Of a stretch of DNA of 64,000 nucleotides, positions 722-55,605 are shown in pieces (the stretch's first letter is position 1; each line of letters starts with the position of its first letter). Origin of the DNA: a virus (taxonomy: Duplodnaviria > Caudoviricetes); the IMG/VR virus record IMGVR_UViG_3300045015_000053. One strand, written 5' to 3'. Both the position numbers and the translations under genes were made by a program. The notes under the pieces are model-generated. The model did not search any database. It was not told the DNA's origin and saw nothing but the letters and a program-made list of their open reading frames with translations.

Positions 722-1811
722 ATGTTCACTCTCGCCGAAGCGATGAAGGCTCTGGAAGGACGTGAGGAGTTCGCCGTCAAGAAGAAGGACGGTCTGACCG
801 TGATCAACTATCTGATCACGCTGCCCGATTCGTTCGTTGGCATCCGCGAGAACTTCCGTGGCGTCGTGTTCGATGACGCGACCGGCGAGATCGTCTCTTT
901 GCCGCTCCATAAGTTCTACAACGTAAACCAAAAGGAACACACCCAGATCGGGCTGATCGGGGAACAAGAATGTCGCGTCCTCGAAAAGTTCGACGGAACG
1001 ATGTGCCACGCGCTGAAGGTCGGCGACCAAATCGTTCTGGCAAGTCGCATGGGGTGGGATAGCTCCCAAGCAATTGCGGCGACAAAGCTGATGTCGCGGC
1101 TGCCACGCCTGTCCGCAGGTGTTGCACGCGAAGTCAACGAGGGTCGAACGCCGATCTTCGAGTACGTCGGGCCTAACAACCCGGTGGTGCTACACTACAA
1201 GACCGAGGATCTCGTTTACCTGTGGTCACGCGACCGTAAGACCGGGGAGTACACGCGCAACGAAGAGATCATGAAGACGCAATCGTCCCCCACAGAACGC
1301 CGCATGCTCATCAAGGACGTGATGGCCGAAGTCGCGGTGCTGAAGGACAAGGAAGGGTTCGTGTGCGTTCTGCCGGGGATGTGGGTGAAGGCGAAGTGTC
1401 CGTGGTACTTGGACCGTCATCAGGCGTTCGACATGCTGATGACGGTCCAAGTACCGGCTCTACGAGGTCGGGTTGCAAGGGAAGCTGGACGACCTGATCG
1501 CGCAGTGTGCGGACCTGTACAAGCCGAAGTTGGAGAAGATTTTGGTTGAAGTCGGTCGCGACCAAATTCGTCTTCACCGCGAGCTTCGCAGCGAGTATGA
1601 TGCGTTGGTCGAGCAAGTTCCTCCGGTCGAAACGGAACACGAGCGTCGTAAGACGTTTGTGTTTCTGGCGAAGCCCAGTCCGAATTTCGGCGGGCTTATG
1701 ACGCTGTACAGCGGCCGGGAGATCGACGGGTGGGTGAACGCCCGCTTGTTCGACCAATACAAGGCGACTTATACGGGTCGCCTGTTCGCCGATCTCTCTG
1801 ACGATTCGTGA
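722..1811 (+). CDS. T4 Rnl1-like RNA ligase, split by a +1 frameshift at about 1442-1470
   Basis: Motif I EKFDGT, PLHKFYN, IFEYVGP, EGFV, KAKCPWY. ORF 1473-1811 resembles the Rnl1 C-terminal helical domain (LDDL...RKTF...LMTLYSG). Confidence 0.85.
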
Positions 1812-6981: not shown

Positions 6982-7191
6982 ATGGGCATGAGCGAAGACG
7001 ACTACCTCTACGAGCGATTGGAGAGGGAGTGGGAGCAATCGGGGCGACCATGCCCCGATTGCTCCACGCAAATGGTTGACGACCACGAAGAGAACAACAA
7101 GCTCACGCGACCGATCCCCGGAAACATCTACGGCACACGCGAACCCGTGTGCCGCCACTACAAATGCCCCAAGTGCGGGCGGAAAAAGTAG
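6982..7191 (+). CDS. small zinc-ribbon protein
   Basis: CPDC and CPKC pairs; AGGAG RBS. Confidence 0.75.
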   Translation: MGMSEDDYLYERLEREWEQSGRPCPDCSTQMVDDHEENNKLTRPIPGNIYGTREPVCRHYKCPKCGRKK

Positions 7192-7230: not shown

Positions 7231-7515
7231 TTGAAGTCCCAACCAACAGGTGCCGCCGTGGTCAACGACAACCTCAAGTTCTTCGTCAACACCGACAACA
7301 AAGCCAGTTTCCAGATCTGTCTGAGCGACGTTAACCGGCCGCGATCCAAGCCGGGCAAGGCGGTCGTTCTGGTGCGGTGTGATCGCCTTGACACTGAGGA
7401 TAACGAACGCGGCCTCAAGTTGGCGCAGAAGATTGTCGATAATCTCAACACCTTGACTCAGGACGAGATCAAGGCTCTGGTGGCGGATGAGTCGATTCCG
7501 CCGCTTTTTAGTTGA
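7231..7515 (+). CDS. hypothetical protein (start uncertain)
   Basis: ORF with phage-like codon usage. Confidence 0.65.
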   Translation: MKSQPTGAAVVNDNLKFFVNTDNKASFQICLSDVNRPRSKPGKAVVLVRCDRLDTEDNERGLKLAQKIVDNLNTLTQDEIKALVADESIPPLFS

Positions 7516-23682: not shown

Positions 23683-24031
23683 ACTACCTGATCGAACACA
23701 AAGAACTGGCGATCTGCTCGCTGATCGTCGGGCTGTTCCTGCCGATGGTCGTGCGAAAGATCTACTCGACGTTCTGCTGGTGCGGGGAGAAGGCCGTCGC
23801 GTTCTTCGACAACCCCTACGGCACTGGCATACTGACTGCGATTCTGGTGGCGGGCCAGTTTTTCTGGCTCCAGCAGTGGATTTTCGCCTATAACGAGGTT
23901 ACACAACACGACCGTACAACAGGTTCGTATACACGCCGATCACGGTGGCGATTCCGATGTTCTTCGCGAACATCGCGTTCATCATCATGGCGGCACTTCG
24001 GACGGTCGGCGCAATCGACGCGAGAAAGTGA
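23679..24031 (+). CDS. membrane protein, split by a -1 frameshift at about 23895
   Basis: GTGA coupling; hydrophobic segments continue in the -1 frame (YTPITVAIPMFFANIAFIIMAAL...RK*). Confidence 0.6.
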
Positions 24032-24381
24032 TGAAAGTCATCGACCGCTACGAAGATGACATGAAGCTCGGCGAGCCTGTTCGCAGCAAGCTCGCCGAGG
24101 CTTATCGCATTTTGAATGACACCAAGACCCGGCTCCGCGAACACGCCGCCGCCAACAGGGTTGACATTTCTTTCTACATGCGGGCGTTGAACACCGCCTT
24201 CCAAATCACTCGTTCCGCCATTGTCGCGGGACGCGATAGGGATCGGATGAATCTCCTTTTCAGCTTGTACAAGGCCGAAATGATGTTGAAGTTTCGGTCG
24301 TCGCCGCGACTCGAAAAGCTGCTCAAGTGTGAAGAACTCGCCAAACAAATCGCCGTCGAACTTTTCGGGGGACTTCTGTGA
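24028..24381 (+). CDS. hypothetical protein
   Basis: Translationally coupled ORF. Confidence 0.75.
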   Translation: MMKVIDRYEDDMKLGEPVRSKLAEAYRILNDTKTRLREHAAANRVDISFYMRALNTAFQITRSAIVAGRDRDRMNLLFSLYKAEMMLKFRSSPRLEKLLKCEELAKQIAVELFGGLL

Positions 24382-25106
24382 TCATCGCCACTAACATGAG
24401 CAAGAAAAACCCGATCCACGACGTGATCGCTTACTCGCCCGTCGAACGACAGGTCTACGACCTTTTCAGGCCGAAAGCCAAAGTCGGCTACCGGATCGAA
24501 GATTTCTTAGTTCTTGAAATCAACGGAGTCAGTTGCGGCGTCGAAAGCAGTTACAAGAACGCAAAGTTGTCTGTGATCCGTGGTTACGACCCCGACGAGC
24601 CAAACTTCCACGGCCAGTACCCCTCGGCCATCCTGCCTTACAACAAGGACGTGTCGAAAGACGTGACGAAGTTCATCGCCGCCCTGTCGAAGATCAACGA
24701 CCTTCACGCCCGCGCCAAAGCCCTCGTGAGGAAATTGCCCGCGTCCGATAAGGTCGAAGACTTCTTGAAACAAAAACTTGCCGGGGACGGCCTCACCGTT
24801 CGTTACTGGCACGCGATTGGTGAAATCAGCGGGTTGGAACTTATGTTCCACGTCATGCCCGAAGGTCAAGCTCCTGCTCAGGGCGTGATGCTATGTTTTG
24901 AACACAACACGCACAAGATCAATCCGTTCTGGAACGGTTTCACCAAGCGTCGTTCCAAGCATTACGGGCCGGTCGATACCGTCGATCTGGCGGCGGGGCC
25001 GTGTGGCACGGGCGTTGACGCCATGAAACGCCACGTTCGGGTAATTGAAAACCTCAACAAGCGGATCGCCGCGTTCGAGATCGGGCGGTCAGGTCAACGT
25101 GGTTGA
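24378..25106 (+). CDS. hypothetical protein
   Basis: Translationally coupled ORF. Confidence 0.75.
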   Translation: MIIATNMSKKNPIHDVIAYSPVERQVYDLFRPKAKVGYRIEDFLVLEINGVSCGVESSYKNAKLSVIRGYDPDEPNFHGQYPSAILPYNKDVSKDVTKFIAALSKINDLHARAKALVRKLPASDKVEDFLKQKLAGDGLTVRYWHAIGEISGLELMFHVMPEGQAPAQGVMLCFEHNTHKINPFWNGFTKRRSKHYGPVDTVDLAAGPCGTGVDAMKRHVRVIENLNKRIAAFEIGRSGQRG

Positions 25107-25668
25107 CGCTACCCCGGAAGAAGAAGTCGCCTACTTAAAGGAACGTGGCATGTTGAACGTCGAGATCAAAGCACGCTGTGCGAAGGAACTTCACGCCGAG
25201 TTCGAGAAGACAGTTCTGGGACGCGGCGGCGAATTCCACGGCTGCGACCACCAGATCGACACCTACTTCAACGTTCCGATGGGCCGGCTGAAGCTGCGAG
25301 AGGGGAACATCGAGAACTTCCTCGTGCAGTATAGCCGCCCCGACCAAGCCGGGCCAAAGATCAGCCAGTTCCGGTTGGTGAAGAACCCAAAGGACTCTGG
25401 GCTGAAAGAGGCTCTGACGGCTGCTCTCGGTGTGCTGGCGGTCGTGGATAAGTGGCGTGACATCTACTGGATCGGCAACGTCAAGATCCACTTCGATTCG
25501 GTGGATAGCCTCGGCACGTTTGTCGAGATCGAGGCTCAGGACAAAGACGGTACAATGACAGTGGATCGGCTCCGCGAACAGACCGATGAACTGATCGCTG
25601 CTTTCGGGATCAAGCCGGAAGACCTGATCTCCGAGAGCTACAGCGACATGATCCTGAAAGGCGTGTAA
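25099..25668 (+). CDS. CYTH-domain protein (class IV adenylate cyclase CyaB-like)
   Basis: NVEIKAR, QIDTYF, RLKLRE, VVDKWRDIY, IHFDSVDSLGTFVEIEA; alternative start 25150. Confidence 0.9.
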   Translation: MVDATPEEEVAYLKERGMLNVEIKARCAKELHAEFEKTVLGRGGEFHGCDHQIDTYFNVPMGRLKLREGNIENFLVQYSRPDQAGPKISQFRLVKNPKDSGLKEALTAALGVLAVVDKWRDIYWIGNVKIHFDSVDSLGTFVEIEAQDKDGTMTVDRLREQTDELIAAFGIKPEDLISESYSDMILKGV

Positions 25669-25729
25669 GAAAAAGACATCAGAATTTCTTAGCTCGGTGT
25701 GGTGAAATGAACTGCGTGAAGGTGGTACT

Positions 25730-25930
25730 ATGACTCTGAAGCAACTGCGGGCGCGTATTGCGGCCAAGAAAGCCGCCAAAGAGCCGCATAATCTCGCCGG
25801 CATCCGTAACGGCGGCGAGTTGTACATCAACGACCAGACGGGTAAAACCGTCTTCGGGCCGATGCACATGGAACGCGACTTCGCGAAAAAGTTCTGCGAA
25901 GAACTGGGGATTCCTTTTACCGAGGACTGA
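25730..25930 (+). CDS. hypothetical protein
   Basis: GAAGGTGG RBS. Confidence 0.7.
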   Translation: MTLKQLRARIAAKKAAKEPHNLAGIRNGGELYINDQTGKTVFGPMHMERDFAKKFCEELGIPFTED

Positions 25931-25931
25931 G

Positions 25932-26186
25932 ATGAAGGTCTGGTTTACTAAAGAGGCCAACTCGGACAATCTGCACGAGGGCTTCTTGATCAGTGACGGC
26001 CCTCGGCGTTTGCGAGTCATCGCGATGGGCAGCGTCAATGACAGCATTGTCGTTCTCGATCCGCAAATCGAGTTCTTCAGCAGCATGATGGTGATCAAGG
26101 GGTTCGAGGAGGCGGGCGCACTCCTGAACGACAAGGACGTGTTCCATTTGGTCAGCGTCATGGCTTTGTACGAAAACCCCAAATAG
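25932..26186 (+). CDS. hypothetical protein
   Basis: GAGGA RBS; ends in TAG. Confidence 0.7.
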   Translation: MKVWFTKEANSDNLHEGFLISDGPRRLRVIAMGSVNDSIVVLDPQIEFFSSMMVIKGFEEAGALLNDKDVFHLVSVMALYENPK

Positions 26187-26193
26187 GTGCAAA

Positions 26194-26385
26194 ATGGACG
26201 AACTCATCAAGGCGGCAGACATCGTTACCACCGTTCTCTGGAACGAGATGGAGCGAAACGAACTGTCGCCTGACAAGCCCACGCTGGAACGGGTCAATCG
26301 AATCGGACCAAACACGACCGAAATCGAGATCCGGTTCCCCGGCCGCAAGTTCAAGAAGTTCGTGCTGACTATTGACCCGCAATAG
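26194..26385 (+). CDS. hypothetical protein
   Basis: AGGTG RBS; ends in TAG. Confidence 0.7.
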   Translation: MDELIKAADIVTTVLWNEMERNELSPDKPTLERVNRIGPNTTEIEIRFPGRKFKKFVLTIDPQ

Positions 26386-26392
26386 CCAACCC

Positions 26393-26463
26393 CCACCTTT
26401 GGGCCAGTGGCTGGCCAGCGATCTCTAAAATCGCGCACATCGGTTCGATTCCGATAAGGTGGG
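26393..26463 (+). tRNA. amber-suppressor tRNA, anticodon CUA
   Basis: Full cloverleaf: acceptor CCACCTT/AAGGTGG, D stem GGCC/GGCC with GG in the loop, anticodon stem GCGAT/ATCGC with loop CT-CTA-AA, 4-nt variable loop, T arm ATCGG-TTCGATT-CCGAT, G73; CCA not encoded. Confidence 0.9.
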
Positions 26464-26528
26464 CTGAATCTAAAACAAAATTTGCATTGGTCAGAACGAC
26501 AATCGGTTCGATCCCCACAAGGTGGGCT
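26464..26528 (+). pseudogene. degenerate tandem copy of the tRNA 3' half
   Basis: ATCGGTTCGATCCCCACAAGGTGGGCT vs ATCGGTTCGATTCCGATAAGGTGGGCT, plus a TCTAAAA remnant. Confidence 0.6.
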
Positions 26529-26542
26529 GGAGGAAAACAAAA

Positions 26543-27100
26543 ATGAACGCTAATGATCTCGTCAACGTATTGTCCGGCACGACCACTCGCAGGGGCTTCC
26601 TCGCCGAGACAATGGGTGTTGTGACCGCTCCGTTCTTCGCCACTGACAACCTGCTGGCGGATGTCCCTCTCGTTCAGGAACACATCGTCGCCCGCGCCGA
26701 CCGCCCGAACGGGAACAAACGGATCTACCCGCTCTCCGTGCTGCAAAGAGTTGTCGCAGATTCGGCCGACGCGGTCGCGCACAGACAGATGATCGGTCAG
26801 TTGGGGATGCCCGCCGACAGCATCATCCACTTCAGTCAGGCGAGCCACATTGTTAGGTCGCTCAAACTGAGTGACTTCGGCCCGCAGATCGGGTGGCAGT
26901 TGATCGCCGAAATCGAACTGCTCGCCACCCCCTGCGGCGTCATCCTGAAGAAGCTGTTGGCATCGCCCGGACAGGTGGCGTTCAGGACGGCCGGGGTGGG
27001 CCACGGCAAGATCAACGATGACGGCATTCTGGTGATTGACGATTCTTACAAGCTGGTCGGCGTTCACGCTGTTCCGGCAAAAGACGCCGTGTGGATTTGA
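26543..27100 (+). CDS. T4 gp21-like prohead protease homologue with catalytic residues replaced and a Tat-like signal
   Basis: ADRPNGNKRIYP, GQLGMP (vs GELDHP), SQASHIV, IELLATPCG, VAFRTAG (vs GVSSRG); N-terminal TRRGFL. Confidence 0.75.
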   Translation: MNANDLVNVLSGTTTRRGFLAETMGVVTAPFFATDNLLADVPLVQEHIVARADRPNGNKRIYPLSVLQRVVADSADAVAHRQMIGQLGMPADSIIHFSQASHIVRSLKLSDFGPQIGWQLIAEIELLATPCGVILKKLLASPGQVAFRTAGVGHGKINDDGILVIDDSYKLVGVHAVPAKDAVWI

Positions 27101-27101
27101 C

Positions 27102-27308
27102 ATGAAAGACAAGCCCCTGCCGCCGCTCAAACTGGTTGACGCCTCGCTTGACAAGCAGAACGCGGCGGCACTATACTTCACGCTCGTTTTCGAGGACGCG
27201 GCCGGTCGCAAGTGGACGACTTGGGGCGGCAAGTTCTTCGATGATCTCAAACCCGTGGGTGAACCGTGCCAGCAGACAGAATGTCCCGCAAATACGCCGA
27301 AGGCGTAG
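27102..27308 (+). CDS. hypothetical protein; may be the 5' part of a frameshifted gene with 27281-27466
   Basis: 28-nt overlap with the next ORF. Confidence 0.6.
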   Translation: MKDKPLPPLKLVDASLDKQNAAALYFTLVFEDAAGRKWTTWGGKFFDDLKPVGEPCQQTECPANTPKA

Positions 27309-27466
27309 TGAAAACCCTCGGCGAGTGCGTCGAGAAGATCGACGCCGTGATCGAACACGAACTGGCGCACAACAACTTCGAGGCGGTCGCCACGATGAAG
27401 GAGATGCGCGGCCGGTGGGAAACAAAAATCGAAGAAGCCGAAAAACGCCTGAAGGAAGACGACTAA
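27281..27466 (+). CDS. hypothetical helical protein
   Basis: MSRKYAEGVVKTLGECVEK... Confidence 0.65.
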   Translation: MSRKYAEGVVKTLGECVEKIDAVIEHELAHNNFEAVATMKEMRGRWETKIEEAEKRLKEDD

Positions 27467-27469
27467 ACG

Positions 27470-27481
27470 GTCTATACTGGC
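27470..27481 (+). promoter_or_regulatory. GTCTATACTGGC promoter box
   Basis: Motif copy immediately after a stop codon. Confidence 0.65.
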
Positions 27482-27542
27482 AAGGCGAAAGGGGGCAAGT
27501 CGCCCCCTCAAACGAAACGAAAACCCTGACCGAGTTGCGACA

Positions 27543-27893
27543 ATGTCCACCAACGATCTGGATCGCCTGAACAACACCGCGCCGCACATGCACGGCAAGA
27601 AGCTCGCCGACGTGAACCTCGAACAACTCTGCACCGCCATCGAAGTGTGGAACTACACGAACGCCGGCAAGAAGTCCAACGGCACGCAGACCTTCGACAT
27701 GCGGGACATCATCGAGGGTGCCGCCCTGTTCGCCTCGCCCGATACGCCGTGGGTGGTGATCGAGAGCGGCCCGCTCACCGGCCACCGCTACTGCAAGACG
27801 CAGCACGGGCTGGTCCTGCAAGCCCCCAAGCCCTCGAACGAGATGAGCCTGCTGGCCGAGGCGACCGCGCGGACCCTCGGCGTCAAGGTCTAA
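27543..27893 (+). CDS. hypothetical protein
   Basis: Clean ORF with biased codons. Confidence 0.75.
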   Translation: MSTNDLDRLNNTAPHMHGKKLADVNLEQLCTAIEVWNYTNAGKKSNGTQTFDMRDIIEGAALFASPDTPWVVIESGPLTGHRYCKTQHGLVLQAPKPSNEMSLLAEATARTLGVKV

Positions 27894-27906
27894 ACCGGAG
27901 TGAGCA

Positions 27907-28179
27907 ATGGCGACGTTACGGGAACTACGGACGAACGCGGGCCTCAGCCAGTTCCGATTGGCCGAACTAGCTGGTGTTCCGTTCCGCGAAGCGAGCCGAC
28001 TGGAACACGGTCGGCCCGTCCCGCCCGAAACGAAGGCCAAACTGCTCGCCTACTTCGGCGTGACCGAGTTCGATGATCCTCCGATGGACGCGCCGGCCGA
28101 CAACCCGGCGCGTCCATTCCCAGACGATGATGACGACCTCTACCGTTGTCAGTGGCCTTTACCCATTCCGAGGCTGTAA
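27907..28179 (+). CDS. XRE/Cro-family HTH regulator
   Basis: LRELRTNAGLSQFRLAELAGV...SRLEHG. Confidence 0.85.
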   Translation: MATLRELRTNAGLSQFRLAELAGVPFREASRLEHGRPVPPETKAKLLAYFGVTEFDDPPMDAPADNPARPFPDDDDDLYRCQWPLPIPRL

Positions 28180-28181
28180 AC

Positions 28182-28382
28182 ATGATCGGTGCTTTCATCG
28201 GGTTCGTCATCAGTTTGCCGTTCGTGATCGCGGTCGATAGCGTCAGCAACTGGTGGATGCTGTGGGCCGCTCTGATCGGCTTCTTCTTTGAACTCGTCGT
28301 CCGGCTCGGCGGCGGGGAAGGATTCGGTGACGCCCTCTTACACTTCGGAGCATGGTCATGGGTCGCAAGCGAGACAACGTGA
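28182..28382 (+). CDS. small membrane protein
   Basis: Two hydrophobic segments; GAGG RBS. Confidence 0.7.
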   Translation: MIGAFIGFVISLPFVIAVDSVSNWWMLWAALIGFFFELVVRLGGGEGFGDALLHFGAWSWVASETT

Positions 28383-28702
28383 AAGCTCTCGAAAAGTTCA
28401 GCACCGCCGAACTCGAAGGGGAGATCGTCAGACGCAAACAGGGCAGCAGCGAGTGGGGCTATGTCGTCATGACCAATGACGAGGACTATGACGACAAGCG
28501 CCCACGATTCGGCATCGTTAACGTCAAATACTGGCAGAAAAACGAGGGACTCGAAGATCGCTGCCTCGGCCACGACGTTCGTCTCCCTCGCGGGTTTCAC
28601 GAGTCGCAAGAGTCCCAGTATACATACAGCGGCACTCTGAAGGACGGGAAGACGGCACTTGATAGTGCCGGTTTCAAGTACCTCGGCGAGTGTGACGATT
28701 AA
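28352..28702 (+). CDS. hypothetical protein
   Basis: GGAG RBS. Confidence 0.7.
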   Translation: MVMGRKRDNVKALEKFSTAELEGEIVRRKQGSSEWGYVVMTNDEDYDDKRPRFGIVNVKYWQKNEGLEDRCLGHDVRLPRGFHESQESQYTYSGTLKDGKTALDSAGFKYLGECDD

Positions 28703-28711
28703 GGTGCAATC

Positions 28712-28918
28712 ATGGCAGAAGAACGGAACAAGAAGTGTCCGGCGTGCGGTGGGACGGGAGAACTCGCCACCTCTCACCGCTTTACCTGCTACGAGTGTAA
28801 CGGCCACGGCAAAGTCACCGACTCCGAACACGCGAGGATCGCCAAGAGCGAGGCCGAAATCGGCCGTGCCTTTGACGCCAGACTGACCGCGAGTGAATAC
28901 CGACAGATGGGTGGATGA
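28712..28918 (+). CDS. DnaJ-type zinc-finger small protein
   Basis: CPACGGTG and CYECNGHG (CxxCxGxG twice). Confidence 0.8.
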   Translation: MAEERNKKCPACGGTGELATSHRFTCYECNGHGKVTDSEHARIAKSEAEIGRAFDARLTASEYRQMGG

Positions 28919-29337
28919 TGTTCGCGGTTCTTGTTTCTGACGGCACGCTGGAAAACAAGTGGGGACTGGACATGTTCGCCGTACTCTGTTCGGACGGTGC
29001 CATAACCGTCGAAGACGTGACCGGAGCCTGCCGCCGCGAGCAGTGGGTTCCTTTGGCAGTCACCCGGCCGCGAGGTCAGCCCGAAGCCAACCCCACCCTT
29101 CTGCTGTTCGACAACGAGCGAACCGCGCGGAAGTTCGCGATGAAGAACTTCCCGAAGGACTGGCTCGTCTCGGTCGTACAACTCGCCGACGCCGACCACG
29201 AGTGGGTGAAAAACAGGGGCTGGCTGACGGAGAAAATCGACTATCCACGCACCATGAACTCACACCCGGACTACGAATTGACATACGCCGTCCTCGAATT
29301 TAGGAACGTCCCCGATGTCGGCATCATCCGAATGTGA
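28915..29337 (+). CDS. hypothetical protein
   Basis: Coupled ORF. Confidence 0.75.
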   Translation: MMFAVLVSDGTLENKWGLDMFAVLCSDGAITVEDVTGACRREQWVPLAVTRPRGQPEANPTLLLFDNERTARKFAMKNFPKDWLVSVVQLADADHEWVKNRGWLTEKIDYPRTMNSHPDYELTYAVLEFRNVPDVGIIRM

Positions 29338-30286
29338 CAACGATCTCGATGCCAAAAGCCGAGTGGCCAGAGAGGTTTTCGACCAACTGCCTCTCCGCAA
29401 GAAGGTCGAGTTTGTCCTGCTTTACGGGGAGTGGCAGTACCGCCCCGCAGAGTCAATCGCGGCCGAACTCGGCGTCACGGTGAAAGAGGTCCAGTGGATT
29501 CTGGGCGAGTTGGTGTTCGACGGTATTGCAGTGCTTCACTCTCACAGCGATTCATACAGACACGTTGAGAGGACGAACGTGGAAATGAGCCGCGAAGAGA
29601 AGTCGCTCAAAGAAGCGATGTTGTGGGAGAAAGCTCGGCCAATCGATCCGAACACATTCCTGCCGATAGACGATCTTGCTTCGGGCGAATCCGTACTCGA
29701 TACGGATCAAGATGAGATGTGTGAAACCGCAAACGCTGGATTCTCTATGTCAGCGAATCCACGACCGCAAAGACAAAAACATCGCCGACACATGAGGGAC
29801 TTGGTCATGTTGACTGGATACCTGCCGGAAAACCTGATCGTCAAGGCGATCACGGACGCCATGATGCACGCCCGCGAGGTGTCCGAGCGGGAACACATCA
29901 AGGCCGACCGCATCGAGCGTGTCAACCAGTTCATCGTCAGCCTGCGCCGTCAACTCGGCTACATGGACGACAAGTACCGTACCGAACGTGAGTACCTGTC
30001 CGCGAAGCTCACGAACAAGGAAGTCTGGTACGACATTGGCGTGTTGAACCCGGAACGCATCTGGGGCATCCACGACATGCCGTACACCACCGTTCAGCGG
30101 TGGGTTCTCCAAGCTCAAGCCGGAATTTCTGTCACCGGCAACCTTCAGCAAGCCATTGATGGTAGCCTGATGAACCTGAAGGGTACGATCTTGGTGGCGC
30201 AGGGTTGCAACCTTGTCACCGACCAACTCAACAAGGACGCGGACAAGGTGGTTTCTGAAATGGCGGCAATCGCCGCCAATCTCTAA
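29315..30286 (+). CDS. protein with an N-terminal HTH (start uncertain)
   Basis: PAESIAAELGVTVKEVQWILGEL. Confidence 0.65.
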   Translation: MSASSECDNDLDAKSRVAREVFDQLPLRKKVEFVLLYGEWQYRPAESIAAELGVTVKEVQWILGELVFDGIAVLHSHSDSYRHVERTNVEMSREEKSLKEAMLWEKARPIDPNTFLPIDDLASGESVLDTDQDEMCETANAGFSMSANPRPQRQKHRRHMRDLVMLTGYLPENLIVKAITDAMMHAREVSEREHIKADRIERVNQFIVSLRRQLGYMDDKYRTEREYLSAKLTNKEVWYDIGVLNPERIWGIHDMPYTTVQRWVLQAQAGISVTGNLQQAIDGSLMNLKGTILVAQGCNLVTDQLNKDADKVVSEMAAIAANL

Positions 30287-37645: not shown

Positions 37646-38026
37646 ATGAAGACTCAGATCACTGCCGAACACCTGTAGGTTTCTGAAGAGAACACTCCGT
37701 ACTGTTACCTCTTCTTGCGGGAAGATCTTCCCCGCGTCTACAGTGCGGTCCAAGCGTGCCATGCCGCCATCGGCGGCGGGCAGTTCTTGATCCCCCAAAA
37801 CATCCCACACCCGCACCTCGTTCTGCTCAGGGCTTCCTCCGAGCAGGAGCTTCGCAACATCGCGTCCCGTTTGGAACGCGACGGGGTACGTCATTACGTT
37901 TTCACCGAGCCAGACATCGGTAATCAAACTACTGCGTTGATTACCGAGCCGGTATATGGTGACAAGCGTCGAGCGTTCCGTCGTTATCGCTGTGTGAACG
38001 AACCGCCGAAATTAGATAGCGGATAA
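37646..38026 (+). CDS. peptidyl-tRNA hydrolase II (Pth2)-like protein with an in-frame TAG at codon 11
   Basis: MKTQITAEHL*VSEENTPYCYLFLREDL...AVQACHAA...LVLLRA..E.EL...F.EPDIGNQTTAL; TAG at 37676-37678. Confidence 0.75.
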
Positions 38027-38064: not shown

Positions 38065-38544
38065 ATGGAAACAATCACTTGTATTCGATGCCGCCAATCC
38101 AAACCTCCAGAAGCTTTTCGTTTTAGAAACAAGTCTCTGGGGAAACGAGACACGCGATGTCGCGAATGTTTTTGCGACTATCACAAGCTGGTTTACGACC
38201 GGCTAACACCAGAACAAAAACAACAAAAAACGAAGTCTTCAACCGACTGTCGGAGGCGACTTAGGGCGAAGCTACATGCGGTGGTGTGGAATTACCTGTC
38301 TACGCACCCATGTGTGGATTGCGGTGAAAACGACCCGGTCGTTCTGGAGTTCGATCACCGCGATCCTGAGCAAAAAGTAGAAACGATCTGCGGCTTGCTC
38401 AGAAATCTGGCTGACAACCACACGCTGCTGACTGAAATTGCAAAATGCGACGTAAGGTGTGCCAATTGCCACCGACGCAAAACAGCAAAGCAATTTGGTT
38501 GGCACGCATTACGAGAGACTTATTATGAACACGAAAACGAATGA
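38065..38544 (+). CDS. HNH homing endonuclease
   Basis: CIRC, CRECF, HPCVDCGE, LEFDHRDP, CANCHRRKT; lower GC than flanking genes. Confidence 0.9.
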   Translation: METITCIRCRQSKPPEAFRFRNKSLGKRDTRCRECFCDYHKLVYDRLTPEQKQQKTKSSTDCRRRLRAKLHAVVWNYLSTHPCVDCGENDPVVLEFDHRDPEQKVETICGLLRNLADNHTLLTEIAKCDVRCANCHRRKTAKQFGWHALRETYYEHENE

Positions 38545-39016
38545 AAAGGGTGCCTTCGAGGGTCGATTTGGTTGGCACCCGTGCGACCGGGAAACCTACC
38601 TCAAGCTGAAGCTGATCCACAAGGTCTTCTGGGAGTCGATCTTCCGGTCGGCCCAGTGGTATCGGTGGGACCGCAAGGAACCCCAGAACCGCGTACAGCG
38701 GTTCCATCGGGTCGAGGGCAAGCGGGAGAAGCTGTTTCCGCCGAAGCCGCTGCCCGAACCGAAGCTTCCGCCGTACCTGCTGAAGATCGAACACAAGAAG
38801 ATCCACCGGACGTACACCGGGGACTACAAGCAGTGGATCGACCACGAGAAAGAAGTGGTCTGGTACACGCTGAAGATGAACCCGGACCTGTACGCGGCCG
38901 TCGCGGACTTCCAGAACGCGCGGACGCCGGTGATCGAAAGTCAGGTTCGGCCGCTGTCCTGCACGGCCGAAAAGATCGAAACCCTGTACCAGCAAGCCGT
39001 GGAGTGGCTTCGCTGA
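38525..39016 (+). CDS. hypothetical phage protein (FGWHPCD..TYLKLK motif)
   Basis: Clean ORF with high GC3. Confidence 0.8.
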   Translation: MNTKTNEKGAFEGRFGWHPCDRETYLKLKLIHKVFWESIFRSAQWYRWDRKEPQNRVQRFHRVEGKREKLFPPKPLPEPKLPPYLLKIEHKKIHRTYTGDYKQWIDHEKEVVWYTLKMNPDLYAAVADFQNARTPVIESQVRPLSCTAEKIETLYQQAVEWLR

Positions 39017-41023: not shown

Positions 41024-41466
41024 AAGATCTTCTTCGCAATCTGCATGTCGTCACCACGCACCAAACGTGGAGCCTGTTCGTGAAACAGGTTTCTGCAATC
41101 CCAGAGGCCACGCCAGAAACCGCCTTCCGTCAGATTCTGAAAATGGCAATTCAGACCTTCCCCGCAGCACGGTATTCTGACAACATGAAGGCACTGCGCA
41201 AAAGATGGGAAGGGAAAGCGGCCAGCGTCAAGGCGTGGACTGCCAGCATCGGTCTGCCTAGCGAGGCCGAAACCTTCCAGATCATCCCGGCCGAAAATAG
41301 GCTTGTGTTTTCCGCCGAGAAGTGTGGTGTGCCGTTTTTGGAAGACATGATCCAGATCGCATATCCTGAGTGCATGTACAAGCCGTTTAACTGGATGCCG
41401 TTTAGCCGTCAAGTAGTTTTTGAAGGTCAAAACAAGTCCGGCATTAACATTGGAGACGTGAAGTGA
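41020..41466 (+). CDS. hypothetical protein
   Basis: ATGA coupling. Confidence 0.75.
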   Translation: MKDLLRNLHVVTTHQTWSLFVKQVSAIPEATPETAFRQILKMAIQTFPAARYSDNMKALRKRWEGKAASVKAWTASIGLPSEAETFQIIPAENRLVFSAEKCGVPFLEDMIQIAYPECMYKPFNWMPFSRQVVFEGQNKSGINIGDVK

Positions 41467-42740
41467 ACCCCAACATCCGCCCACTCCCCGACAAAATCGG
41501 CGTCGGCTTCCTGAGTCCTGAAAAGATCGGCGCGAGCGATTACCGCGAGGAGCGGGCCGCTCACGTCTGGCACTACTTCTTCACACCAGAACGTTGGACT
41601 TGGCCGCTGTGGGACTCGGCCGATCAAGAGAAACCCGGCCCGTCGTTCAAGATCGACGCCTTCTCGCCCAATCTCAACAAGAGCCTGCACTTCGGCCATT
41701 TGCGTCAACTCGCACTGGCCCATTGCATCGGCCGTCTACTGCCACGCACGCAATTCGTTTCGCTGTTGGGATGCACCGGCATCCTTCAGTCGGCACAAGA
41801 CGAACTGAAGGACTGGCTCGATTTCCTCAACATGCGTCCGAAACTGTACTACGACGCCCTGATGCCGCACGACCCGACCATCGTGGAGCGTCACGATGGA
41901 GAAGGCGACAAGGCCGGCGCGATGGTGTGGGACGGACCACTCGGCCCGGTCGTCGTCATGCGGAAGCCGGACGAATCGGGTCACCGCCGTCCGACTTATG
42001 CCTTCCACGATCTCGCTTTTGCGAAGATCGTGGGACCGGACTATTACATCACCGGCGCGGAACAAGTTGAACACTTCCGCAGTCTGGGGTTGGGCAACAA
42101 GCACCTGCCGATGGGCCTCGTCGTTGACGCCGAGGGCAAAAAGCTGAAGAGTCGTTCCGGTGACGCGATGACGGCCAAAGAGGGCTTCGAGGCGGTCGAA
42201 CTCGCCATGAAGCCGGTTCCAGATCCGAAGAAGATCGTCTGGAACATCGTGGCGTGGAACATGCTGTCGGTCGGCCGCAGCACGAACGTCAAGTTCGAGC
42301 CGGAAAAGTGGGTGAAGCCGGAAGCTCCGGGGATGTACTGCTCGTACACATGGGCGCGGCTGTACTCCGCTCTGGGCGGGCTGTACCGTGGCGACGGCAG
42401 TGACATGACCCAGAGCGATGCGGAACTGGCGGGGTATTCTCAGTACCGCCACTACTACATCGCGAAGGCTCGCCAGAGCATGGACCCGGCTCCGCTGGCG
42501 AACTACCTGTACGATCTGTGCCGCCGCGCTACGAAGGCGTACCACAGCGAGCGTATTCGTGACGGTCGTCGCGGGTTCCAGTTCGCGGTGAGCCACGCGA
42601 TGAACGGCATCTACGACTGCATGAACGCCCTCGGCCTGTTCCCAATCAAGATGCGGGAGGAAGACGATGTTCGAGACAACGGGGCCGCATTACTGCCCGA
42701 ACTGCGAGCCGATACTGAACAAGAAAGACCGTCGTGTTGA
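41463..42740 (+). CDS. argS: minimal arginyl-tRNA synthetase-like protein
   Basis: SPNLNKSLHFGHLR (HIGH), TYAFHDLA, YITGAEQVEHF, KKLKSRSG (KMSKS), YCSYTWARLYS and YLYDLCRRATKAYH (DALR domain), LGLFPIKM. Confidence 0.85.
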   Translation: MNPNIRPLPDKIGVGFLSPEKIGASDYREERAAHVWHYFFTPERWTWPLWDSADQEKPGPSFKIDAFSPNLNKSLHFGHLRQLALAHCIGRLLPRTQFVSLLGCTGILQSAQDELKDWLDFLNMRPKLYYDALMPHDPTIVERHDGEGDKAGAMVWDGPLGPVVVMRKPDESGHRRPTYAFHDLAFAKIVGPDYYITGAEQVEHFRSLGLGNKHLPMGLVVDAEGKKLKSRSGDAMTAKEGFEAVELAMKPVPDPKKIVWNIVAWNMLSVGRSTNVKFEPEKWVKPEAPGMYCSYTWARLYSALGGLYRGDGSDMTQSDAELAGYSQYRHYYIAKARQSMDPAPLANYLYDLCRRATKAYHSERIRDGRRGFQFAVSHAMNGIYDCMNALGLFPIKMREEDDVRDNGAALLPELRADTEQERPSC

Positions 42741-54034: not shown

Positions 54035-54835
54035 ATGCCCGCCAAGAAGCCCGCCAAAGAAGTCGATCCGCTGGACGATTTCCGCAAGAAGATGAACCGT
54101 GAAAACCGCGCCAACAAGAAAGCGTTGGATGGCCTGAAGGCCAACAAGCACTTCAATGCTGAGACGGTCATGGCCGAGCTTTTCGCCGGTCTGGAATGCG
54201 GCTCCCTTCACATCGGTTGGGCGTTAGACAAGTTCTGGGGTCTGAAGGTCGCGGAGACGATGCCCAAGCTGCAAAAGATCTACGACGAGGCCGTGAAGCG
54301 GAACTACACCCGCGAGAACAACCTGTCCTTCAACGACATGGACGACAAGCTGTTCGTCATGCCGCACGACCAGTATTGTGTCCTCTGCCACGAGTTGCAG
54401 AGTTCCAACTACGTCTACGTCTGGGAACGGAACGCGCCGTCCAAGTTCCAGAAACTGCACGTCCGGCGTTACTTCGACGTACTGAAGGTCGAAGACAAGT
54501 TCGACAAGCAGGAAGAAGCCGAGTTCAAGAAAAAGGTTCGTGAGAAGGGCAAGCGTGCGGGGATCATCGCCGCGCAACGGTTCGTTGAGAACTACGCCGA
54601 CGACTACCCGGAAAATCCGTACCCGAAGCGGCTCTCGCTGGACAGCTACATCAAGGCCGGCTTCGAGATGAAGTACGGCGACTGCCGTGACGAGGGCTAC
54701 ATCCTGACGTGGGACCAGTTCCGCGACTCGGTTGATCGGTCGTACTACGAACACAGTCGGATCGAAGCAGTCCTCGACTGCTACATTCCGAGCATCGAAT
54801 ACGCACTCTTTGAAGAAGGGCGGGAAGAAGAATGA
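54035..54835 (+). CDS. hypothetical protein
   Basis: Long ORF with high GC3. Confidence 0.8.
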   Translation: MPAKKPAKEVDPLDDFRKKMNRENRANKKALDGLKANKHFNAETVMAELFAGLECGSLHIGWALDKFWGLKVAETMPKLQKIYDEAVKRNYTRENNLSFNDMDDKLFVMPHDQYCVLCHELQSSNYVYVWERNAPSKFQKLHVRRYFDVLKVEDKFDKQEEAEFKKKVREKGKRAGIIAAQRFVENYADDYPENPYPKRLSLDSYIKAGFEMKYGDCRDEGYILTWDQFRDSVDRSYYEHSRIEAVLDCYIPSIEYALFEEGREEE

Positions 54836-55605
54836 AGCTCACATTCGCCGGTGTCGGTTCGGCCTTCACCGACAGCCGTTACTGGCAATCGAACATGTTC
54901 TTCACCTCGAAGCAGGGGAAGAGATTGATGATCGATTGCGGCGGTGATGCCCGGTTCAGTTTCGGCGAACACGGCGCTACCAACCGCAACATCGGGGATT
55001 GGTCGGATGGCGTTTACATCAGCCACCTTCACGCCGACCACATCGGCGGGCTGGAGTGGTACGCCTTCTGCACCTACTTCAATCCCAACGTGTCGCGGCC
55101 CAAGTTGTTCATCGTGGACGAACTGGTCGATCCGCTGTGGGAGAGCTTGAAGGGCGGGCTGGCCTCGCTGGAAGGCAAGGTCATGACGCTCGAAGACTTC
55201 TTCGACGTGCGTGAGTTGCACATCAACAGCAGCTTCGTCTGGGAGGAACTGAACTTCACCCCGATTCAGACCGTTCACATTATGAACGGCATGGGGATCG
55301 TGCCTTCTTACGGGTTGCTCGTCAAAGAAAACGGCAACCCCGCGACCGCGTTCATCACCACGGACACGCAATACTGTCCGCGCCAGATCGAGCGATTCTA
55401 CGAACGCTCCAGCATCATCTTCCACGACGCCGAAACCGGCGCGAGACGGAGCGGCATTCACGCATACTACGACGACCTCAAGACGTTGCAAGCCGAACAC
55501 AAGGCGAAGATGTGGTTGTATCACTACAACCCCGACCCGACCCAAGAAGCCGAGGCAGACGGGTTCAAAGGGTTTGTGAAAAAGGGACAAACCTTCGAGA
55601 TCTAA
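54832..55605 (+). CDS. MBL-fold metallohydrolase, Apyc1 (anti-Pycsar)-like
   Basis: GVGSAF, LMIDCG, SHLHADHIGGLE, LWESLKGGL, TTDT, IFHD, GIHA, LYHY. Confidence 0.85.
   Translation: MKLTFAGVGSAFTDSRYWQSNMFFTSKQGKRLMIDCGGDARFSFGEHGATNRNIGDWSDGVYISHLHADHIGGLEWYAFCTYFNPNVSRPKLFIVDELVDPLWESLKGGLASLEGKVMTLEDFFDVRELHINSSFVWEELNFTPIQTVHIMNGMGIVPSYGLLVKENGNPATAFITTDTQYCPRQIERFYERSSIIFHDAETGARRSGIHAYYDDLKTLQAEHKAKMWLYHYNPDPTQEAEADGFKGFVKKGQTFEI

Follow-up and report, generated by a model that had tools for sequence, protein, structure and literature searches.

What does an amber-decoding tRNA read in a phage that otherwise ends its genes with TAG? Suppressor tRNAs in standard-code phages are a puzzle, and the authors who described those of Xanthomonas phage XacN1 sought their targets without success. 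We studied this question in a 64-kb stretch of DNA (hereafter the window, meaning the whole stretch analysed), which belongs to a huge phage from lake-water metagenomes and has a GC content of 57%. Its genes include those of a UvrD helicase with an intein, sigma factors, SmpB, a SpoU methylase and an ArgRS-like protein, and it carries a tRNA gene with the anticodon CUA, here called tRNA(CUA). Our preferred reading, to which we give a probability of about two in three from sequence comparison, is that tRNA(CUA) would be a functional suppressor, selected for reading through an amber codon that gates a Pth2-like gene, whatever the amino acid inserted. The gene and its surroundings were as follows.

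25932-26186, plus strand: small gene ending in TAG (gene call on Logan contig L150, 3390-3644, and list of open reading frames).
26194-26385, plus strand: small gene ending in TAG, 7 nt before tRNA(CUA) (gene call on L150, 3652-3843).
26393-26463, plus strand: tRNA(CUA), 71 nt, class I, no encoded CCA (ARAGORN, Rfam RF00005 and fold).
26502-26544, plus strand: degenerate second copy of the T arm, 3' acceptor strand and 18-nt trailer of tRNA(CUA) (repeat search).

The initial annotation had proposed ARAGORN as a check, and this program called a single tRNA in the 64-kb window (26393-26464, plus strand, anticodon cta); its label 'Pyl' is given to every CUA tRNA, merely names the anticodon and is no evidence of identity. 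The Rfam model RF00005 aligned end to end (model positions 1-71) with 26393-26463 at 53.9 bits, against a gathering score of 29, with E values of 4e-11 in a local scan and 8.4e-9 in a scan of the whole window. In a permissive E-value scan of the whole window this was the sole match to any Rfam family in the 64 kb. The default whole-window gathering scan returned nothing, tRNA(CUA) included, which is a speed-filter artefact that could hide other RNAs in similar scans.

The cloverleaf presented an acceptor stem of seven Watson-Crick pairs (CCACCUU/AAGGUGG, with C1-G72, C2-G71 and A3-U70), a D stem of 4 bp (GGCC/GGCC) closing a 7-nt D loop with G18G19 (AGUGGCU), an anticodon stem of 5 bp (GCGAU/AUCGC) with the loop CUCUAAA (U33, CUA and A37), a variable region of only 4 nt (GCAC), and a T stem of 5 bp (AUCGG/CCGAU) with the loop UUCGAUU. 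The discriminator was G73, at 26463, and was followed by the trailer GCUGAA. All 21 stem pairs were Watson-Crick, and U8, A14, G18G19, U33, T54-Psi55-C56 and A58 were all present, the one deviation being U21 for A21. The cloverleaf was also the minimum-energy fold (-29.7 kcal/mol, z -3.45), and none of 200 shuffled sequences folded equally well. The initial annotation had described four canonically paired arms with U33, CUA and A37, a possible extra C(-1):G73 pair and the absence of an encoded CCA. The sequence, the RF00005 score and ARAGORN agreed on the arms, and the trailer on the missing CCA; C26392 at position -1 was indeed able to pair with G73, but a -1:73 pair occurs in ~46-49% of all tRNAs of the comparison set. 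We conclude that tRNA(CUA) is a genuine, canonical elongator-type tRNA and that, from these features, it is probably functional and reads UAG.

The two genes directly upstream had been noted to end in TAG, and both ends were reproduced by the independent calls on contig L150. A promoter scan found no promoter-like site between the gene at 26194-26385 and tRNA(CUA), and the tRNA is therefore probably cut out of an operon transcript. Downstream, a 43-nt direct repeat of 79% identity joined a reference copy at 26439-26481 to the second copy at 26502-26544, located 39 nt past the tRNA. This second copy ended at the ATG (26543) of the next gene and included the GGAGG ribosome-binding site of that gene; the fold of 26464-26543 (z +0.14) gave no structure for it alone. 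It probably derives from an older tRNA gene or from a duplication that was only partial. The stretch with tRNA(CUA) was sequence-identical in four further lake-water metagenome DNA runs, i.e., it showed no population variation; the sequencing runs listed as carrying it included no RNA run. A DNA search of positions 24000-30000 against 50,697 phage records gave no match, an exact-pattern scan of IMG/VR for the tRNA with a free anticodon found none, and neither did a scan of 185,579 species genomes for the tRNA 3' end. Over the 66 kb walked upstream, the only tRNAs met were tRNA-Arg(UCU), Thr(UGU), Thr(CGU) and Gly(UCC), the main tRNA arrays of the phage being farther away.

Some other loci of the window deserve mention in their own right. 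A T4 Rnl1-type RNA ligase was split both in the window (722-1549 and 1473-1811; 275 aa and 112 aa) and in contig L002, and was a single 362-aa gene in the lake contig L001 (8905-9993); the split may be due to a frameshift variant or to differing assemblies. A 69-aa zinc-ribbon-like gene (6982-7191), ended by TAG, was in frame with the gene at 7231-7515 and separated from it by 22 codons without another stop, an arrangement that could be a read-through fusion or chance. The metallo-beta-lactamase-fold protein encoded at 54832-55605 matched the anti-Pycsar Apyc1 family (E 8.6e-22).

Two screens of the window for gate-like in-frame TAG codons returned one, at 37676, within a gene whose parts are listed below.

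37646-37675, plus strand: leader of ten codons, MKTQITAEHL (translations).
37676-37678, plus strand: in-frame TAG at codon 11, followed by G; the proposed client codon and the only gate-like TAG found in the window.
37679-38026, plus strand: Pth2-like hydrolase domain (weak Pfam PTH2 hit, family profile and alignments).

The frame reads MKTQITAEHL-TAG-VSEENTPYCYLFLREDL, and from the gate TAG to the conserved first strand (YCYLFLREDL) there was no ATG, GTG or TTG. The Pfam PTH2 model matched the gene weakly (E 7e-4, below the Pfam cut-off); the profile of the Pth2-like family, in turn, matched solved Pth2 structures over its own full length (24bt, E 1.8e-8; 2zv3, E 4e-6). On these matches, the gated gene is a divergent PTH2 paralogue. 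Both the leader and the TAG were kept in two relatives, L036 and L037, the leaders of the two being MQTQLTANHL and MNAQLTAEHL. L036, a 586-kb contig, encodes a tRNA(CUA) 8.9 kb upstream of the gate; although L036 keeps the gate, this tRNA is very different from that of the window. In the window, the gate is 11.2 kb downstream of tRNA(CUA) on the same strand, the largest distance seen, and the link between them therefore rests on the family pattern described below and not on adjacency. Directly after the Pth2-like gene lies a gene for an unknown 185-aa protein (38459-39016), which had no Pfam hit and for which an Atlas search was uninformative. In at least 10 further phage loci, a homologue of this protein (motif GxHPC..ETYLKLK....W.RW.RK.PQNR) directly followed the Pth2-like gene, so the module may have a third component.

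A profile search of IMG/VR yielded 76 loci with Pth2-like homologues. A tRNA(cta) was present in 53 of 78 loci with such a homologue and was the commonest anticodon (55 of 387 tRNAs). After deduplication, 45 of 67 distinct Pth2-like genes had a tRNA(CUA) within ~10 kb, although many loci came from related phages, so that these counts are not independent events. The nearest tRNA(CUA) was within 600 nt in 30 of the 45, on the same strand in 42, and the sole tRNA in 20 kb in 23; the remaining 22 genes had no tRNA(CUA) within reach. At least 33 loci presented a short leader, then TAG, then the domain, without any other start, the commonest leader being ATG-NNN-TAG. About half of the homologues were ungated, and these usually had a tRNA(CUA) 6-560 nt downstream.

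The anticodon of the suppressor matched the type of stop in the gate. Among the distinct gates, 25 of 26 were TAG accompanied by CUA, and the two other stop codons were represented by one locus each: the gate of L089 is MK-TGA, with a tRNA(UCA) ~260 nt upstream, and that of L074 is MKRPDT-TAA, with a tRNA(UUA) in the locus. A purine directly after the stop is a context long known to favour suppression, and it was found in 25 of 26 distinct gates, being a G in the window. Six genes (L049, L053, L056, L058, L069 and L098) had a second in-frame TAG, located in a variable loop before the conserved HPHLV strand, where homologues have N, D, S or L. All this suggests that tRNA(CUA) and the gated gene fit each other like lock and key, a pairing repeated across many phage lineages, and that the tRNA of the window has one detectable client, the UAG of the Pth2-like gene at 37646-38026.

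According to the proposed mechanism, tRNA(CUA) would be co-transcribed with the upstream small genes, excised by host RNase P and 3' processing, completed by a CCA-adding enzyme and charged by some host synthetase. It would then insert its amino acid at UAG in competition with RF1, and the full-length Pth2-like enzyme would be made only upon read-through of the codon-11 UAG. The gate lies in a non-conserved N-terminal leader, and the second gates in a variable loop, so any amino acid should do. Such tolerance would in turn explain the free drift of the acceptor stem and the discriminator within the tRNA(CUA) family.

The alternative that survives best, although we regard it as unlikely, is that tRNA(CUA) is a general read-through or counter-defence tRNA without a dedicated client and that the Pth2-like gate is incidental. 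Possible roles of such a tRNA are the extension of proteins of the phage or its host, the rescue of phage genes that have acquired nonsense mutations, and compensation when the host attacks termination or tRNAs. Jumbo phages that keep the standard code, XacN1 among them, are reported to carry CUA suppressors for which no target is known (PMC5852040), which would agree with this view, as would the ungated Pth2-like domain of XacN1 and the two TAG-ended genes directly before tRNA(CUA). However, the type of stop in the gate tracked the neighbouring suppressor anticodon in all three classes, most of the nearest tRNA(CUA) genes were within 600 nt of the Pth2-like gene, and a purine nearly always followed the gate; none of these would be expected if the gate were incidental.

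If tRNA(CUA) serves the gate, the next question is which amino acid it would insert. The initial annotation had stated that the acceptor is unlike that of bacterial tRNA-Gln, that the architecture is not that of tRNA-Pyl and that the charged amino acid is not inferable from sequence, and our comparisons led to the same view on each point. The identity set of E. coli GlnRS comprises U1-A72, G2-C71, G3-C70, G73, G10, U35, A37 and U38. An assignment to tRNA-Gln, or to a supE-type suppressor, was rejected since tRNA(CUA) has C1-G72, C2-G71, A3-U70 and A38, and agrees only in G73, G10, U35 and A37. In the comparison set, phage tRNA-Gln had U-A or A-U at 1:72 in 10 of 11 cases and G73 in 8 of 11. 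In 46 tRNA(CUA) of the Pth2-linked family, by contrast, the 1:72 pair was G-C in 36, G-U in 4, C-G in 4 and U-A in 2, and position 73 was A in 26, U in 11, G in 8 and C in 1; the anticodon loop YU-CUA-AA was kept in 46 of 49. On this tally, the non-Gln acceptor is a trait of the whole family and not an oddity of the window copy.

tRNA-Pyl is characterized by a 6-bp anticodon stem, a 3-nt variable loop, a small D loop without G18G19, the absence of T-Psi-C and a G1-C72 pair. It was ruled out by the 5-bp anticodon stem, the normal 7-nt D loop with GG, the T loop UUCGAUU, which retains T-Psi-C, and C1-G72, only G73 being in agreement. Likewise, tRNA-Sec has a UCA anticodon, an 8+5 acceptor/T helix, a long variable arm and a 6-bp D stem, and was ruled out by the CUA anticodon, the 7+5 helix (8 only if C-1:G73 forms), the 4-nt variable region and the 4-bp D stem.

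A nearest-neighbour isotype assignment over 348 phage tRNAs had a leave-one-out accuracy of 54%, which is unreliable, and no call was made from it. The best sense-isotype neighbour of tRNA(CUA) was 57% identical, which is no close relative. For 35 of 49 CUA tRNAs the nearest neighbour was another CUA tRNA, and there was no clustering with any one sense isotype. The nearest relative of the window tRNA was the second tRNA(CUA) of L048, with C1-G72 and G73 and 60% identity. The identical acceptor stem, CCACCUU/AAGGUGG, was shared by streptococcal tRNA-Arg(CCG) with A73, a tRNA-Ile(UAU) of Saccharibacteria and a phage tRNA(GCA) with the loop CCGCAAA, C33 and U73 (loci L119-L143 from Streptococcus genomes, plus L124 and L144); being common to Arg, Ile and GCA tRNAs, this stem points to no single isotype. 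The gate codons fall at non-conserved positions and L036 has a different tRNA(CUA) with the same gate, so that the most parsimonious view is that selection does not act on the inserted residue, which, as these patterns suggest, is probably unconstrained. In E. coli, synthetic amber suppressors without strong acceptor determinants tend to receive Gln or Lys via U35, and by analogy Gln or Lys would be the default expectation here, which is a guess and no more.

One enzyme of the phage itself could be considered for the charging. The ArgRS-like gene at 41463-42740 encodes a stripped-down protein of 425 aa with weak hits to the ArgRS catalytic and DALR anticodon-binding domains in the right order, and a pattern search of IMG/VR found no relatives of it. 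Charging of tRNA(CUA) by this enzyme, with UAG read as arginine, would fit with the position of the gene 4 kb past the gate, its weak class-I and DALR signatures, its conservation in L036 and L037 (64-71% identity) and the acceptor stem shared with the streptococcal tRNA-Arg(CCG). Nevertheless, we regard it as very unlikely. The main identity elements of ArgRS are C35 and A20, and tRNA(CUA) has U35 and C20 instead; the same acceptor stem also occurs in tRNA-Ile(UAU) and in tRNA(GCA) with U73; in L036, which retains the ArgRS-like gene, the acceptor of tRNA(CUA) is entirely different; and none of the other 75 Pth2-like loci has this gene. The compact Arg tRNAs of the phage, one of them at 6209-6278 of contig L041, are more natural partners of this protein.

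The genetic code of the phage bears both on the gate and on the best-known role of suppressor tRNAs in phages. TAG ended 10 of 74 genes called independently on the Logan contig and about 11 of 82 in our own calls (~13%), and the TAG-ended genes showed no excess of back-up stops. When TAG was read through, the open frame of the window hardly increased (0.97 to 0.99), less than when TGA was; for the relatives, six-frame read-through coverage was too coarse to class the code of each, and at most a handful hint at TAG recoding. In the genes called, with about a third of the genome visible, TAG was a regular terminator, and it was found in frame once in 64 kb, as opposed to code 15, in which in-frame TAGs are many and TAG is rare as a terminator. 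The phage keeps the standard code and is not TAG-recoded, and 'suppressor of a recoded phage' is therefore the wrong frame for tRNA(CUA).

A code change in which tRNA(CUA) turns TAG into a sense codon, usually Gln, for late genes, as in Lak and crAss-like phages, is thus about as improbable here as charging by the ArgRS-like enzyme. It remains the most familiar function of such tRNAs (bioRxiv 10.1101/2021.08.26.457843), and the visible sequence amounts to ~130 kb of a roughly 400-kb genome. Against it stand the share of genes ended by TAG, the near absence of frames opened by read-through, the single in-frame TAG found in 64 kb, the acceptor that is not Gln-like and a GC content of 57%, as compared with the low GC linked to recoding.

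Two further points count against the gate model. An efficient suppressor should be costly in a genome in which ~13% of the genes end in TAG without compensating back-up stops. Besides, the phage encodes an RF1-like factor (contig L039, 2620-3186, with PCRF and RF-1 domains), located 25 kb upstream of the window, which would oppose suppression. The phage also has a canonical, ungated PTH2 with a clear Pfam hit (contig L040, 9391-9756), 28 kb upstream of the window. The presence of the canonical PTH2 and the RF1-like gene suggests that the gated Pth2-like gene would be a paralogue with a specialised role, and that this genome interferes with termination as well.

That tRNA(CUA) is a decaying or silent gene left by tRNA-gene turnover or mobile-element traffic, as the degenerate copy downstream, the lack of its own promoter and of an encoded CCA, and the differing sequences and sites of the tRNA(CUA) genes in relatives might suggest, is the least probable of these alternatives in view of the perfect stems and intact universal tRNA positions, the identical sequence in four further lake metagenome runs and the conservation of the gate in relatives.

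Starting from the gate reading, a tentative and rather doubtful extension is that tRNA(CUA) and the gated hydrolase form a self-setting circuit, with a tRNA that has no fixed amino-acid identity. In such a circuit, synthesis of the Pth2-like enzyme would scale with UAG read-through, and the enzyme would act on the ester bond of the aminoacyl- or peptidyl-tRNA of the suppressor itself. Minigenes of the lambda bar type shed dipeptidyl-tRNAs, and the enzyme might also clear those expected from a two-codon ATG-NNN-TAG leader. Read-through would then limit itself to a low set-point, tolerable with 13% TAG stops. The release factor gene prfB (RF2) is autoregulated via an in-frame UGA and a +1 frameshift and senses the release factor itself. 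As in prfB, an early in-frame stop in a translation-factor gene would tie its synthesis to the decoding of that stop; unlike prfB, a dedicated tRNA must read the stop here, and the feedback of the hydrolase on that tRNA is hypothetical. If true, the circuit would be a tRNA-based counterpart of RF2 autoregulation and a natural example of a tRNA under selection for the codon it reads rather than the amino acid it carries.

Among the known systems, the TAG-recoded (code 15) phages, such as Lak, crAss-like and Agate phages, carry a suppressor tRNA(CUA) (Borges et al., bioRxiv 10.1101/2021.08.26.457843). The window tRNA resembles these suppressors in being a phage-encoded canonical cloverleaf that would read UAG in a standard-code host and is presumably host-charged. 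The recoded phages, however, have many in-frame TAGs in structural and lysis genes and read TAG as Gln, whereas here TAG is a normal stop, one client codon is visible and the acceptor is non-Gln.

XacN1 is closer, being a large standard-code phage with tRNA(CUA). It carries two CUA suppressor tRNAs, and when its authors read through the annotated amber stops, no target emerged (PMC5852040). Here, in contrast, a candidate target can be named, and a leader before the gate that is too short for gene annotation would have made such a target invisible to their test. In XacN1 itself (L148, AP018399.1, 243756-244595), the Pth2-like domain is the ungated C-terminal third of the 279-aa ORF364.

Acinetobacter phage vB_AbaM_ME3 (KU935715.1) is a cultured phage with the same module. 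Its ME3_tRNA4, annotated 'tRNA-OTHER, anticodon CTA', also has C1-G72; 427 nt separate it from the downstream Pth2-like gene ME3_195, whose frame begins MT-TAG-IHENKK. The differences are that its gate is at codon 3 (codon 11 in the window) and that its tRNA has A73 and an encoded CCA and adjoins the gene, which is 11 kb away in the window. The record KU935715.1 annotates ME3_195 from an internal start and does not mention the gate; if the gate reading is true, it shows how gene callers truncate gated genes.

Jumbo phages carry a PTH2 of archaeal/eukaryotic type, for which a role in ribosome rescue was proposed (Iyer et al. 2021, PMC7824862). The present phage, with its canonical ungated PTH2, agrees with that survey, in which suppressor tRNA and stop-codon gate are unmentioned; the gated gene studied here is a divergent paralogue. 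A literature search found no paper linking a suppressor tRNA with PTH2 or describing the gate. Thus phage suppressor tRNAs, orphan CUA suppressors and jumbo-phage PTH2 are known, and what would be new, judging from the sequences, is the link between them and the gate. If true, this link would explain the absence of a recognisable amino-acid identity set by the tolerance of the gate positions for any residue, and a suppressor tRNA plus a gate would be a natural, compact translational switch. Were the amber gate its client, the puzzle left by XacN1 would become open to direct experiment, in vB_AbaM_ME3 or with cloned parts in E. coli.
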